The position numbers and the translations under genes are program-made. The notes under the pieces were generated by a model that saw only the letters and a program-made list of their open reading frames with translations, made no database searches and was not told where the DNA came from. This document shows, in pieces, positions 59,886-64,000 of a stretch of DNA of 64,000 nt (position 1 is the first letter of the stretch; every line of letters starts with the position of its first letter). This DNA is from Arenicellales bacterium (GTDB lineage: Bacteria; Pseudomonadota; Gammaproteobacteria; Arenicellales; CBDCFT01). The DNA is taken from NCBI GenBank assembly GCA_965216735.1, contig OZ244198.1:629628-693627 (forward strand). Direction: 5' to 3'.

Positions 59886-60878
59886 ATGAAGGCAATGCGA
59901 ACAACTAACATCATTAAAGAACCAACTAAGTTTTCAATGTCGAACGAAGAGCTAGCGTTGTTTAACAAACAAGGTTTTGCTGGCCCTTTTTCACTATACA
60001 CCCAAGGGGAAATAGAAGATGAGGTAAGAAAACTTAGACCAAAATTGATCGATACCCGAGACGCTGCCTTTCATGGAAATGATGGTGTGTCCGGTGCAAC
60101 TAATCTTGCTAATTATGATCGCCACCTTGATCTACCGTTTCTTGCAGATCATATTTGTCGGCCAGAGATCGTTGGTAGGGTAGCCAGTATTCTTGGGCCA
60201 GATATACTTTGTTGGAGAACTGAATTTTTTCCAAAGTATCCAGGCGATGAAGGTACCGATTGGCACCAGGCCGCGAACTTTAGCAATGTCGCTACATCAA
60301 AAAAGCCACAAATTGAATGGCCCCGAGGAAGTGGATTCCAAGGAACTATTACAGTTTGGACAGCCTTTACAGACAGTACGGTTGAGAATGGTTGCATGCA
60401 GTTAATGCCTGGGACACATAAAGTAATGAACTACGATGAAACTAAGGTCATGGACTACGACGAATCTAGAATTAATTGTGTTAAGAAGAACGGTATAAAA
60501 CGCGGTTTCTTTGGTTACGACTACAGGCAATTACAGAAAGATCCAAATTGGAGTCCAGACGAGGCGAAAGCAAAGTCAATGATTATGCGCGCGGGCGAGT
60601 TCATCATTTTTTGGTCAACGCTACTTCACGCGTCGCATCCCCACAGCGCTAAAACAAACTCCATTCGACTGGGGTACGCGGCGCGCTACTTACCAACTTG
60701 TGTAAAGGTTTATCCGCATTCCAATTCTCTAGATGAATTCGGTGGTACTGCTTCCCTAAATAAACACGGATGCGTGCTCGTTTGTGGAAACAACTATTTC
60801 AGTCACAACCAATTTCTATCCCATACCCTTAGCGGGATGAAATTTAAAACTCAATCCTTTGGAGATGCGCATCTGTGA
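59886..60878 (+). CDS. Non-haem Fe(II)/2-oxoglutarate-dependent halogenase, SyrB2/CmaB type (PhyH fold with HxA motif)
   Basis: FFPKYPGDEGTDWHQAANF has H127-Q-A129 in place of HxD/E. It also has the distal His in FWSTLLHASHPH and an Arg in RLGYAARY. The start may be the internal ATG at 59937 (MSNEELALFNKQGFAGPF). Confidence 0.8.
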   Translation: MKAMRTTNIIKEPTKFSMSNEELALFNKQGFAGPFSLYTQGEIEDEVRKLRPKLIDTRDAAFHGNDGVSGATNLANYDRHLDLPFLADHICRPEIVGRVASILGPDILCWRTEFFPKYPGDEGTDWHQAANFSNVATSKKPQIEWPRGSGFQGTITVWTAFTDSTVENGCMQLMPGTHKVMNYDETKVMDYDESRINCVKKNGIKRGFFGYDYRQLQKDPNWSPDEAKAKSMIMRAGEFIIFWSTLLHASHPHSAKTNSIRLGYAARYLPTCVKVYPHSNSLDEFGGTASLNKHGCVLVCGNNYFSHNQFLSHTLSGMKFKTQSFGDAHL

Positions 60879-61156
60879 AAACAATAGCCACTCAAAGTGC
60901 GATGGATTCAATCACTCCCACGGAACATGCCTTGGCAGAAATGTGGAAAGATATCCTGAATTTAGAAAACGTAAAAAAAACAGACAATTTCTTTGACCTC
61001 GGCGGTAACTCGTTGTCGGCGATCAAGTTGTTGTCAAGAGTAGAAGATCAGTTCGGTATAGGGACTCTATTAGCTGATAAGTTGTTTCAGGAACCTGAAC
61101 TCCGCGCGCTAGCTTTTGAAATAGATCGTTGCAAGGGTCATGTTGCATGTGATTAA
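60875..61156 (+). CDS. Stand-alone peptidyl carrier protein (thiolation domain)
   Basis: 93 aa with the phosphopantetheine attachment motif FFDLGGNSLSAIKL. The GTG start overlaps the halogenase stop (GTGA). Confidence 0.8.
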   Translation: MKTIATQSAMDSITPTEHALAEMWKDILNLENVKKTDNFFDLGGNSLSAIKLLSRVEDQFGIGTLLADKLFQEPELRALAFEIDRCKGHVACD

Positions 61157-61165
61157 TGTCGCGAA

Positions 61166-61936
61166 GTGCGAGCTTACAAAATGAGTGCAGGACGCGAAGT
61201 TTGGTTCGCGCATTTCTCAGAGCGAAACAATGCATCAAAACGACTGTTCTGTTTTCCTTATGCAGGTGGTGGCCCAAATATTTATAGATCATGGGTGCGG
61301 TATGTACCGAAAAACATTGAAATTGTTGGCATCCGACTCCCTGGTAGGGAGCAACGATACTACGAAAAACCTTATAGTGAATGGCCTATCTTAACCGTTT
61401 CGCTGTTGGACGCCTTCCAGACAAAATTAGATAAACCCTACGCGTTTTTTGGGCATAGTTTAGGAGCACGTTTAGCTTACGAAATGGCTGACAAGTTGGG
61501 GGCGAAAGGAGATCGACCGCCGCACCTTTTAATTGTATCCGCTTGTTGTGCGCCCTTTACTCCAAGGCAAACTCCGCATTTGCATAACCTCCCTTTCGAC
61601 GAACTTAGACAACGCCTTTTACAACTAAACGATTCGCCAGCAAAAGCCGTGCTCACTAACGATCAGATTATGTTGTTTACGGAGACCCTGTTAAGAGCTG
61701 ATTTGAAGTTGGCGGAGACCTGGGAACCATCAGGTCGGAAAGTTTCTACCCACATAGCCGCTTTTTTTGGTGTGCAAGACGCGATCGACCCCAAGAGAAA
61801 TATGCGGAGTTGGAACAACTTCACTTCTTCATCTTTTTCTATTCACGGTTTCGCAGGCGGACACTTTTTTATTAACGAACAGAAAGTCGCTGTAGTAAAA
61901 ACCATCGTAGACCTCTTCCAACAGACTTTTCACTAA
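61166..61936 (+). CDS. Type II thioesterase (alpha/beta hydrolase)
   Basis: LFCFPYAGGG N-terminal motif, nucleophile elbow GHSLGA and C-terminal GGHFF. The start is either GTG 61166 or ATG 61181. Confidence 0.8.
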   Translation: MRAYKMSAGREVWFAHFSERNNASKRLFCFPYAGGGPNIYRSWVRYVPKNIEIVGIRLPGREQRYYEKPYSEWPILTVSLLDAFQTKLDKPYAFFGHSLGARLAYEMADKLGAKGDRPPHLLIVSACCAPFTPRQTPHLHNLPFDELRQRLLQLNDSPAKAVLTNDQIMLFTETLLRADLKLAETWEPSGRKVSTHIAAFFGVQDAIDPKRNMRSWNNFTSSSFSIHGFAGGHFFINEQKVAVVKTIVDLFQQTFH

Positions 61937-61950
61937 AGTGTGTACACTTC

Positions 61951-63642
61951 TTGCGCCAATCCGACTCAATCGGCACTAATTTCATGAGATCATCCAGCAC
62001 ATTTTTCACAAACGCTGCCCATCCGATTTGTCATTTTCCTCTGATAGAAGAATATCATCAATGGCGTGCGGTTCACGATTGGAACAACACCACCACACCC
62101 TTTCCGTCAAATCACACTATTAGCGAACTCTTTGAAAGGCAAGTCCATGTAAGTCCAGAAGCGACTGCTCTTGTTATGGATGGTCATTCCATAACATATT
62201 CAGACCTGAATAAGACAGCAAACAAGTTGGCACGTTTTCTACAGAAGCAGTATGGGGTTAACCCTGGCTCAATAGTAGCTATATCTATGGAACGCTCTTT
62301 TACGATGATTATTGGTTTGTTGGCAATCTTGAAGTTAGGTGGCGCGTACTTGCCGTTTGATCGTCTGTGTCCACACAAGCGCATATGTGCAATGCTGCAC
62401 GACGCAGGTGTTAGTGTTGTTATCACCGATGGCGAATTAGCACTACATGGTTATCACGTTATTTATTTTGATCGGTTCCACAATGAAACACCTCAGCTTG
62501 ACCACGAAAGCAAAGAGAATCTGCCATGTTTTACAAAACCCGATGGGATCGCATACGTGAATTACACATCGGGTTCAACCGGTACACCAAAGGGCGTTGC
62601 GATCTCCCATAAAGCTGTAATTAGCCTGTTATTCGAAGCGAACTATACCCGTTTAGATAACACGCGCCGGATTTTACAATTGGCGCCACCAAGCTTCGAC
62701 GCATTTACGTTCGAACTATGGGGAGGGCTATTGCATGGCGGTTGTAGTGTTCTTTTTAACGGGAAAATACCAACTCTACTCAAGCTTCGCGAAACTATAC
62801 GTAACGAACGAGTCACCACCATTTTTTTAACAACTGCTTTATTTAATACGATCATTGATGAAGCGCCAGACACTTTGGCGTCCATTGAGGCAATTTTGAC
62901 TGGTGGTGAAACACATTCTATTAGTCATATTCGGAGAGCGAAAGAACTCTTGCCTCAAGCATTGATTTCGAGTGTTTACGGTCCGACAGAATCGACAACA
63001 TTTTCCACTCATTTTCCGATTTCTGCATTAAAAGACAATGCTAAAACTGTACCGTTGGGTAGGCCAATAAATAATCGTCAGGTTTTTATTCTCAAAGAAG
63101 ACAAGACTATTTGCCCTGTTGGCGAAGTGGGAGAAATATATATTGCAGGGCCAGGTTTAGCCCTTAGGTATCTGCGAAAACCAGACCTCACCGCCCAGAA
63201 GTTTGTCACCAATTTACCTTTTCTTAAGACCCATCAGGTAGCCTACAGAACTGGTGATCTTGGCTGTTATCAAGAAAGCGGAATAATCGAATTTGTCGGG
63301 CGTGATGACGATCAGATAAAACTACGTGGGTTTCGAATCGAACTTTCGGAAGTAGAGCAAGAACTGATCAAGCACCCAAAGGTTAAACAGGCAGTGGTAC
63401 GTATACAAAATCAAAGGAATGGAAAGACTATGGAGGCATTTGTAGTAGCACCGAGTAACGTTGTACCGGATCTACCCGCTTTTCTCGGAGAATATTTACC
63501 GTCTTACATGCTTCCGACGAGATATTTTGCTTTGGAATTCTTCCCACTAACTACCAACGGGAAAATAGATTATGCGCAACTTATGTCGATCTCCAAGAAC
63601 TACAAATTGACGGCAAATAACCCTGTACAACGATATCAATAA
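61951..63642 (+). CDS. Stand-alone adenylation (AMP-binding) enzyme, NRPS A-domain type
   Basis: Core motifs LTYSDLNKTANKLA-like A1, YTSGSTGTPKGV (A3), FDAFTFE (A4), YGPTE (A5), YRTGDL (A7), GRDDDQIKLRGFRIEL (A8), LPSYMLP (A9) and NGKID (A10). There is no fused T or C domain. The start may be ATG 61984. Confidence 0.85.
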   Translation: MRQSDSIGTNFMRSSSTFFTNAAHPICHFPLIEEYHQWRAVHDWNNTTTPFPSNHTISELFERQVHVSPEATALVMDGHSITYSDLNKTANKLARFLQKQYGVNPGSIVAISMERSFTMIIGLLAILKLGGAYLPFDRLCPHKRICAMLHDAGVSVVITDGELALHGYHVIYFDRFHNETPQLDHESKENLPCFTKPDGIAYVNYTSGSTGTPKGVAISHKAVISLLFEANYTRLDNTRRILQLAPPSFDAFTFELWGGLLHGGCSVLFNGKIPTLLKLRETIRNERVTTIFLTTALFNTIIDEAPDTLASIEAILTGGETHSISHIRRAKELLPQALISSVYGPTESTTFSTHFPISALKDNAKTVPLGRPINNRQVFILKEDKTICPVGEVGEIYIAGPGLALRYLRKPDLTAQKFVTNLPFLKTHQVAYRTGDLGCYQESGIIEFVGRDDDQIKLRGFRIELSEVEQELIKHPKVKQAVVRIQNQRNGKTMEAFVVAPSNVVPDLPAFLGEYLPSYMLPTRYFALEFFPLTTNGKIDYAQLMSISKNYKLTANNPVQRYQ

Positions 63643-63644
63643 TT

Positions 63645-64000
63645 ATGTCTTACTTGACGCCCGAGCATGAGCAGTTTCGGCAAATAGTTCGAAGATTTCT
63701 CATCAACACCATTTTGCCTCAGGTTGATAACTGGGAAGCTGAGCAACAAGTACCAAAATGTGCGTGGCGTAAATTCGGAAAGGAGGGTTTTCTCGGTATT
63801 AATCATTCACGATCCGTAGGTGGACAGGAGAAAGACATTTTTTACTCAGCAATCTTTTTGGAGGAGTTGGGTCGAATGGGTTATGCTGGAATTCGAGCCG
63901 CTATCGCCGTTCATGCGTATATGGCAACGCAATATCTTGCATTGTCAGGTTCGCGCCACCTTCAGACAAAATTTCTACGACCAGCAATTTCCGGTCATCA
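63645..64000 (+). CDS. Acyl-CoA dehydrogenase family protein, N-terminal fragment (runs off window end)
   Basis: Own translation gives MSYLTPEHEQFRQIVRRFLINTILPQVDNWEAEQQVPKCAWRKFGKEGFLGINHSRSVGGQEKDIFYSAIFLEELGRMGYAGIRAAIAVHAYMATQYLALSGSRHLQTKFLRPAISGH, a typical ACAD N-domain. It starts 2 nt after the A-enzyme stop. Confidence 0.7.
   Translation, partial: MSYLTPEHEQFRQIVRRFLINTILPQVDNWEAEQQVPKCAWRKFGKEGFLGINHSRSVGGQEKDIFYSAIFLEELGRMGYAGIRAAIAVHAYMATQYLALSGSRHLQTKFLRPAISGH

Follow-up and report, generated by a model that had tools for sequence, protein, structure and literature searches.

A compact five-gene halogenase cassette with a predicted isoleucine-specific adenylation enzyme and an acyl-CoA dehydrogenase-like flavoprotein in an Arenicellales bacterium

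A 64 kb stretch of DNA from an Arenicellales bacterium (assembly GCA_965216735.1, contig OZ244198.1, positions 629,628 to 693,627; the whole stretch is called the window here) ends in a real, intact and tightly packed five-gene operon. This cassette occupies the last 4.1 kb of the window (59886-64000, + strand) and encodes, in order, a halogenase of the Fe(II)/2-oxoglutarate (2OG)-dependent SyrB2/CytC3 type, a free peptidyl carrier protein (PCP), a type II thioesterase, a free adenylation (A) enzyme, and an acyl-CoA dehydrogenase (ACAD)-like flavoprotein. We propose that the operon makes a free, modified branched-chain amino acid independently of nonribosomal peptide synthetases (NRPS), i.e. 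isoleucine tethered to the PCP would be chlorinated at the gamma position, the flavoprotein would close a cyclopropane ring, and the product would be released by hydrolysis and exported. We give this proposal about an even chance of being correct. The enzyme families, the halogenase signature, the isoleucine code of the A enzyme and the genetic coupling of the five genes support it at the level of sequence, and the nature of the final product (a cyclopropyl, dehydro or chloro amino acid) is suggested by analogy with characterized pathways.

The halogenase gene (59886-60878, 330 aa; Pfam PhyH, E 2.6e-33) is followed on the same strand by the genes for the PCP (60875-61156, 93 aa; PP-binding, 6.6e-13), the presumed release enzyme, a type II thioesterase (61166-61936, 256 aa; Thioesterase PF00975, 9.4e-39), the A enzyme with predicted L-isoleucine specificity (61951-63642, 563 aa; AMP-binding, 8.4e-79, plus AMP-binding_C), and the ACAD-like flavoprotein, whose open frame runs from the ATG at 63645 to the window end and encodes the N-terminal 118 residues (63645-64000; Acyl-CoA_dh_N, 2.4e-24). 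All five Pfam assignments far exceed the curated cut-offs and are the ones named in a first-pass annotation of this DNA, which had been made from the letters alone. Its description of five co-directional, packed genes with a GTGA overlap at 60875-60878 agrees with the list of open reading frames (ORFs) and with direct reading of the junction: the PCP gene opens with a GTG inside the end of the halogenase gene, whose stop is TGA, and the two genes share 4 nt (CTGTGAAA). The remaining intergenic gaps are 9, 14 and 2 nt, counted from the earliest possible start codons; alternative ATG starts at 61181 and 61984 give gaps of 24 and 47 nt. A database gene model of the halogenase (P0001, 327 aa) is 100% identical and starts at Met4 (position 59895). 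Overlapping minus-strand ORFs are short (80-89 aa) and were disregarded. The last gene is cut by the window edge, as had been annotated, and its frame runs off at 64000 after 118 codons. A scan for promoter and terminator consensus sequences found sites no more frequently than in shuffled sequence, a result that neither supports nor excludes an internal promoter; an Rfam scan of the whole window gave no match, and neither did an exact 37-mer from the window end in metagenome contigs.

Judged by its sequence, the first protein bears the defining signature of an aliphatic halogenase, and chlorination activity is predicted for it. With the NCBIfam model TIGR01762 ("chlorinating enzyme") it reaches 403 bits, the cut-off being 226, and its matches in the PDB to SyrB2 (2fct, E 3.5e-124, residues 14-321) and CytC3 (3gja, 6.9e-109) extend over nearly the full length. 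The motifs WHQA and HASHPH are both present in the translation; WHQA aligns with WHQA of SyrB2, and LLHASHPH with LMHASYPH. The residues of SyrB2 aligned with these motifs are His116, Ala118 and His235 of its iron site. The alanine in SyrB2 stands where hydroxylases have a carboxylate ligand, and it opens a site for chloride. The facial triad of the window protein likewise reads as His-X-Ala plus a distal His, with no carboxylate. The first-pass annotation had called the protein a halogenase, and this call held: hydroxylase identity was rejected because the TIGR01762 cut-off is passed and the SyrB2 iron site is matched by His-Gln-Ala (the His-X-Ala of halogenases) and the second His. The overlap with the PCP gene and the A enzyme two genes downstream provide a dedicated carrier and adenylation context for the enzyme. 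A protein search returned 2,323 homologues at E <= 1e-10, and in a neighbour-joining tree, built without bootstrap, the window halogenase groups with those of four related loci (L045, L001, L054 and L051), apart from the SyrB2/threonine clade and from CytC3. The same motifs occur in all ten related cassettes described below except L051 (a miss of the regular expression).

The A enzyme passes TIGR01733, the model of the amino acid adenylation domain, with 380 bits (cut-off 317), and alignment to GrsA gave the Stachelhaus code DAFFLGVTFK. The GrsA sequence itself gave its canonical code, DAWTIAAICK, in this alignment, and the residue numbering is thereby confirmed. The code DAFFLGVTFK has been reported at the isoleucine (minor valine) positions of cyanopeptolin synthetase (PMC2533009) and for L-isoleucine in the suomilide and aeruginosin families, and L-allo-isoleucine domains carry DALWMGGVFK (PMC13122637). 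Because the code is documented for isoleucine, L-isoleucine is the predicted substrate of the A enzyme. The analogy with the Ktz system drawn in the first-pass annotation is thereby strengthened, since a code for L-isoleucine (PMC2533009, PMC13122637) points to the amino acid that KtzD accepts on KtzC (PMC12615548). Among the relatives, across phyla, the code is identical to DAFFLGVTFK or one position off, partly from alignment gaps. In the genome-contig scan no relative of the A enzyme exceeded 47% identity. The motifs read earlier were all found again in the translations, including FFDLGGNSLSAIKL in the PCP and GRDDDQIKLRGFRIEL, SGSTGTPKGV, YGPTE, YRTGDL and NGKID in the A enzyme. The phosphopantetheine serine of the PCP sits in GGNSL, and the thioesterase carries CFPYAGGG, the nucleophile motif GHSLGA and a C-terminal GGHFF (the His motif).

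The ACAD-like fragment starts 2 nt past the stop codon of the A gene, spans the whole N-terminal domain (positions 1-112 of the 113 in the Acyl-CoA_dh_N profile) and shares 39-55% identity with the ACADs of related cassettes. The closest PDB matches of the full-length orthologues are an ACAD from Geobacillus (2pg0, E 4.4e-66) and human long-chain acyl-CoA dehydrogenase (LCAD; 8w0t). The glutamate of a QMERL motif in the orthologues aligns with LCAD residue 261, the catalytic base (Glu261) of the human enzyme, and the position of the base in medium-chain acyl-CoA dehydrogenase (Glu376) is Gly or Ala in the cassette ACADs. This ERL glutamate is kept in the cassette ACADs of all ten relatives; the window copy ends at residue 118, before the glutamate. 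Because the LCAD-type glutamate is retained, the cassette ACADs appear able to take the alpha-proton from a thioester. A prolyl-PCP dehydrogenase of a pyrrole pathway was also considered and rejected, since the A code is that of isoleucine and the ACAD scores fall below the cut-offs: the ACAD orthologue of L045 reaches 183 bits against a cut-off of 650 for NF045652 and 174 against 500 for NF053553.

Ten related loci, taken from halogenase homologues 63-72% identical to the window protein, were compared. They come from an uncultured genome (L045, with the order halogenase (Hal)-PCP-thioesterase (TE)-A-ACAD-BenE and an Sfp-type phosphopantetheinyl transferase (PPTase) nearby), Pseudoalteromonas luteoviolacea (L047/L048, cassette plus YbaK and MFS genes), Pseudomonas (L049/L050, cassette plus YbaK and LysE), a sequencing-run (Logan) assembly (L051, A-Rieske-BenE-ACAD), Burkholderia cenocepacia (L052, cassette plus YbaK and Na_H_Exchanger), Streptomyces hundungensis (L053, Na_H_Exchanger downstream, tRNA_edit and BenE upstream), an ENA metagenome assembly (L054, a TE-A fusion, Rieske and PPTase genes, with ACAD and BenE on the opposite strand) and a JGI metagenome contig (L055, a Lactamase_B-tRNA_edit fusion, ACAD, TauE and a TE-C-A protein). 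The gene order of the window was also seen in the alphaproteobacterium Arenibaculum (L001) and in Actinoplanes (L035). An ACAD gene lies beside the other four genes in all ten related loci, usually in the order Hal-PCP-TE-A-ACAD; it is on the strand of the cassette in nine and on the opposite strand in L054, and another gene stands between A and ACAD in three.

A metagenome scan with the halogenase as query added 79 loci, which were classified with tblastn and from the code read in the nearest A domain. Class I loci were defined by the order Hal-PCP-TE-A together with the isoleucine code, and 18 of them had at least 4.5 kb of downstream sequence; an ACAD gene is present in 16 of these and a YbaK-type gene in 13. 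Since all ten relatives and 16 of the 18 class I metagenome loci have it, the ACAD belongs to the cassette and is a conserved core component tied to the isoleucine code. Together with the 2-nt gap, these counts settled in favour of the first-pass annotation its own concern that the ACAD-like gene might open an unrelated operon. It had named Pseudomonas syringae, actinomycetes and cyanobacteria as the main sources of described cassettes, and its suggestion of an unusual taxonomic location did not hold: cassettes of this kind are frequent in Pseudomonas, Burkholderia, Pseudoalteromonas and Streptomyces and in metagenomes from soil. Loci with the threonine code DFWNIGMVHK have the order A-PCP-Hal, usually with condensation domains and mostly without ACAD, and are of SyrB type. 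A third class (L095, L096, L098, L099 and L103) has the order Hal-A-PCP and the code DIWLTGLCIK, with no thioesterase or ACAD.

Several further observations were made on these loci. Some of the threonine-code A-PCP-Hal loci, L123 and L128 (also L117), carry a thioesterase and an ACAD as well, and L128 adds BenE; the pairing of ACAD and halogenase therefore extends beyond isoleucine, as these loci show. A locus in a Streptosporangiaceae metagenome-assembled genome (L007, 5005-11518) has ACAD, PCP and A genes with halogenase-like fragments of 23-30 aa between them, and may be a decayed or rearranged cassette. In L047/L048 (1-9514) and L049/L050 (1-9970) the cassette adjoins AurF-like, cupin, HamA-type haem-oxygenase-like, A-PCP-reductase and isopropylmalate-synthase-like genes, which resemble diazeniumdiolate signal clusters of the ham/pvf type, and a functional link to the cassette is possible. 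A Rieske non-haem iron oxygenase gene (Rieske plus Ring_hydroxyl_A) lies in or beside the cassettes of the closest relatives (L045, 16146-17357; L051, 11597-12742; L054, 12480-13631). An Sfp-type PPTase gene is found in L045 and L054, and the window strain may have Rieske and PPTase genes beyond 64000.

The pathway that we favor would proceed in five steps. The A enzyme would adenylate L-isoleucine, as its code suggests, and load it onto the phosphopantetheine arm of the free PCP. The halogenase would then act on a side-chain carbon of Ile-S-PCP that is not activated, placing chlorine most likely on the gamma-methyl group, as KtzD and CmaB do. In the third step, modelled on KtzA, the glutamate of the ACAD-like enzyme would remove the alpha-proton of the thioester, and the resulting carbanion would displace chloride and close the cyclopropane, giving a 1-amino-2-ethylcyclopropane-1-carboxyl thioester of the coronamic acid type. 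The chlorine is probably cryptic in the final product because ring closure displaces it. The type II thioesterase would hydrolyse the product off the PCP, and a membrane transporter, for which the divergent EamA gene is a candidate, would export the free amino acid. The closest precedent is that of kutzneride biosynthesis, in which KtzD cryptically chlorinates carrier-bound L-isoleucine (Ile-S-KtzC) and a flavoprotein closes the ring of allocoronamic acid (Neumann and Walsh 2008, as cited in PMC12615548 and PMC8407142); the amino acid unit is assembled and set free there by KtzB (A), KtzC (PCP) and KtzF, a type II thioesterase (PMC4147253).

A number of points weigh against this pathway. We found no published biochemistry on the cassette or its close relatives, and a literature search returned no description or product assignment of a five-gene stand-alone cassette, which is weak evidence as the search took in few subscription journals. 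The catalytic glutamate and FAD site of the window ACAD are inferred from orthologues 39-55% identical to it; a competent glutamate would fit alpha,beta-dehydrogenation as well as cyclopropanation, a choice that sequence cannot decide. PDB and NCBIfam comparisons place the cassette ACADs only generically among ACADs, and a search with the Streptomyces cassette ACAD likewise gave only generic names among the matches listed. Two loci (L068 and L077) are cassettes lacking ACAD, with the order Hal-PCP-TE-A-YbaK. The Rieske oxygenase of some relatives means that the final product may be further modified, and no PPTase gene is visible within the window.

The first alternative, which we consider unlikely, is that the ACAD-like enzyme is a true dehydrogenase that desaturates (chloro)isoleucyl-S-PCP at the alpha,beta position, so that the product would not be of the coronamic acid type. 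Loss of HCl would then lead to a dehydro or vinyl-type amino acid; in a second variant the beta-carbon of the enamine would attack a delta-chloride and the flavin would re-reduce the imine, giving 2-(1-methylcyclopropyl)glycine. The conserved glutamate is the catalytic one of redox-active ACADs, and among solved structures the nearest are those of ordinary acyl-CoA dehydrogenases and of prolyl-carrier-protein dehydrogenases. The kutznerides, moreover, hold 2-(1-methylcyclopropyl)glycine and not allocoronamic acid (PMC4147253), so that even for the Ktz enzymes the physiological product is not settled. Against desaturation, only one combination of an Ile-S-PCP halogenase and an ACAD-like protein has been described biochemically, and it yielded the allocoronamyl thioester (as cited in PMC12615548); moreover, no gene for an electron acceptor such as electron transfer flavoprotein adjoins any cassette examined.

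It is distinctly unlikely that the pathway ends in a chlorinated amino acid, on the model of CytC1-4 and armentomycin, with the ACAD-like protein in an accessory or editing role. The A enzyme, PCP, halogenase and thioesterase are the exact parts list of CytC1-4 (PMC8407142), and L068 and L077 imply that the four-gene core can stand alone; however, 26 of the 28 informative class I loci include an ACAD, a conservation that argues for a core chemical step, and in the window the ACAD gene is translationally coupled to the A gene, with the 2-nt gap.

We see only a slim chance that the cassette, like the Ktz and SyrB sets, is the building-block arm of an NRPS cluster, here one lying beyond 64000, with the modified residue passed to a condensation domain. 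The window does end inside the fifth gene, the same parts feed an NRPS in the kutzneride cluster (PMC4147253), and L055 has a TE-C-A protein 6 kb downstream. That locus is the only one of the ten with a condensation domain in its downstream flank of 4-10 kb, however; the others have transporters and often an editing gene instead, and the closest relatives (L045, L001, L054 and L051) continue with BenE, Rieske oxygenase and PPTase (L045, L054) genes. In the window itself the Pfam scan found no condensation domain in any ORF of at least 300 aa, as the first-pass annotation had stated; among the metagenome loci, L092 shows a weak match (24%). Scarcely credible, finally, is the idea that the ACAD is unrelated, being the start of a fatty-acid operon, or that the oxygenase is a hydroxylase: the fatty-acid operon was rejected on synteny conserved across four bacterial classes and the 2-nt gap to the A gene, and with the His-X-Ala motif and the TIGR01762 match these findings refute both at the sequence level.

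To return to the favored pathway and the fate of its product, a transporter gene of the BenE, LysE, MFS, Na_H_Exchanger or TauE family is near-universal in the related cassettes. A gene for a YbaK/ProX-type tRNA-editing protein (PF04073) occurs in about two thirds of the class I cassettes, usually between A and ACAD (L047-L050, L052, L053, L055 and metagenome loci such as L056, L065 and L070); the L053 copy is found upstream, and that of L055 forms a fusion with a metallo-beta-lactamase (Lactamase_B) domain. The L049 copy scores 59.6 bits against the equivalog cut-off of 153 for TIGR00011. Because transporters are near-universal, the editing gene is frequent and condensation domains are almost absent, the product is suggested to be a free and possibly toxic amino acid. 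We extend this tentatively, with the balance of probability against it, to the idea that the cassette family makes a free isoleucine-derived antimetabolite (cyclopropyl, chloro or dehydro) which aminoacyl-tRNA synthetases would mistake for isoleucine, leucine or valine, the producer being protected in many lineages by the YbaK/ProX deacylase and by an exporter that removes the product. If true, this would define an uncharacterised kind of amino-acid toxin or signal that is widespread, occurring in Pseudomonas, Burkholderia cenocepacia, Pseudoalteromonas and Streptomyces and in soil and marine bacteria, and a mode of self-resistance by tRNA proofreading that is not standard in biosynthetic clusters.

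The subgroup to which the window belongs has no tRNA-editing gene in the visible sequence, and with BenE and often a Rieske gene it may make a further oxidised variant. A BenE-family gene accompanies the cassette in the closest relatives (L045, L051 and L054), and that of the window probably lies beyond 64000. Within the window, a gene for an EamA/drug-metabolite transporter (DMT)-family protein (58750-59676, - strand; Pfam EamA, 1.4e-31) is divergent from the cassette and is, tentatively, a candidate exporter of the product. The 209 nt between the two (59677-59885) are, by position only, the presumed promoter or regulatory region. Among the related loci the EamA gene has a single similarity, of 31% identity, in L047/L048. 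Its G+C content (about 0.40-0.43) is like that of the cassette, the remaining window being at 0.505. The G+C content drops to about 0.40-0.45 from about 58 kb onward, and because of this fall the EamA gene and the cassette may form an acquired island.

The surroundings of the cassette had been described as housekeeping and catabolic operons of a genome rich in repetitive extragenic palindromic (REP) sequences, and the flanking genes and palindromes confirm this. Elsewhere in the window are metF, metH, genes for TRAP transporters, a hut operon, a branched-chain-type ABC transporter, a tyrosinase and an insertion sequence (IS) transposase, as well as those for choline dehydrogenase, a second GMC oxidoreductase and sarcosine oxidase. 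The choline dehydrogenase falls in a 90% identity cluster that puts the organism among the Gammaproteobacteria. REP-like palindromes (consensus about GTAGGAGCGAGCTTGCTCGCGAA) form clusters at 55230-55502 and 58013-58269, together with a second repeat family, D2; the clusters are intergenic and flank a block of DUF2914 and tyrosinase genes. The tyrosinase gene (56207-57169, - strand; Pfam 1.5e-42) is preceded by an ORF of 145 aa (57184-57621, - strand) that lacks a Pfam match and whose C-terminus is very rich in lysine; this ORF could encode a copper chaperone or a "caddie"-like partner. The IS transposase (18207-19532, + strand, 441 aa; DUF772 plus DDE_Tnp_1) has at least seven near-identical copies on the same contig, and the genome is therefore rich in this IS. 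Directly upstream of metF and metH lies a pair of genes for a SABATH-family S-adenosylmethionine-dependent carboxyl methyltransferase (6119-7225, + strand; PF03492, 2.4e-39) and a fusion of an ArsR-type helix-turn-helix domain with a methyltransferase (7222-8214, + strand). The SABATH family is mostly a plant one, and finding the pair next to a methionine-cycle locus of a bacterium is unusual. An ORF of 572 aa (15107-16825, + strand), directly after an M19 membrane dipeptidase gene, had no Pfam match at E <= 1e-5 and is the sole ORF of at least 300 aa in the window without one. Two TRAP membrane proteins are very long (996-3653, - strand, 885 aa; 26704-29178, - strand, 824 aa), and at least the second is a DctQ-DctM fusion.

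To our knowledge, the combination of an aliphatic Fe/2OG halogenase with a ring-closing flavoprotein is known from a single biochemical study, that of KtzD and KtzA, and its physiological product is debated. The window holds a compact, NRPS-free version of a KtzD/KtzA-like toolkit. As a biosynthetic cluster the cassette is solid and not surprising in kind, and it is a member of a large, widespread and apparently orphan family with a strictly conserved isoleucine code. A five-gene operon is easily expressed, and this one could settle whether the ACAD-like partner cyclopropanates, desaturates or rearranges its substrate; a biocatalytic route to strained amino acids could also be built on it. The tRNA-editing and exporter genes of the sister cassettes suggest a role of the product as antimetabolite or signal.

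Compared with known systems, the cassette is most like KtzA-D plus KtzF of the kutzneride pathway (Kutzneria sp. 744), which comprises an A enzyme for L-isoleucine, a PCP, an Fe/2OG halogenase, an ACAD-like protein and a type II thioesterase. The L-isoleucine substrate, predicted here, and cryptic chlorination before ring closure, as we would expect here, are further points of likeness. The ktz genes run in the order ktzA-B-C-D. The order here is Hal-PCP-TE-A-ACAD, the genes nearby are for transporters rather than an NRPS, and the host is a gammaproteobacterium. Parts, substrate and coupling thus agree with a Ktz-type system, the embedding in an NRPS cluster is not found in the window, and the likeness to KtzA is drawn from predicted function. 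The CytC1-CytC4 system of Streptomyces (gamma-chloro-aminobutyrate/armentomycin) resembles the cassette in its stand-alone A enzyme, PCP, halogenase and thioesterase working without an NRPS towards a free amino acid; unlike the cassette, it has no ACAD-like gene, its substrate is aminobutyrate or valine-like and not isoleucine, and CytC3 falls outside the tree group of the window halogenase.

The coronamic acid system of Pseudomonas syringae (CmaA-E/CmaT) shares with the proposed pathway the carrier-tethered gamma-chlorination of an isoleucine isomer, closure of an aminocyclopropane and release by a thioesterase, but its ring closure is by CmaC (not an ACAD), it uses the CmaE shuttle and a second carrier protein, and A domains that recruit allo-isoleucine carry a different code. 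A pathway of the Cma type was rejected because no CmaC, CmaE or second PCP was found here or in the relatives and the code is not DALWMGGVFK. SyrB1/SyrB2 (4-chlorothreonine of syringomycin) provide the closest solved structure to the window halogenase, SyrB2, with the same iron site; SyrB-type loci differ in the threonine code DFWNIGMVHK, the order A-PCP-Hal, the presence of condensation domains and a separate tree clade. PltE, RedW and PigA, finally, are ACAD-family enzymes that, like the enzyme proposed here, act on an aminoacyl-S-carrier protein charged by a free A enzyme; they differ in the proline-specific A code of their systems, and the cassette ACAD reaches 183 bits against the RedW cut-off of 650.

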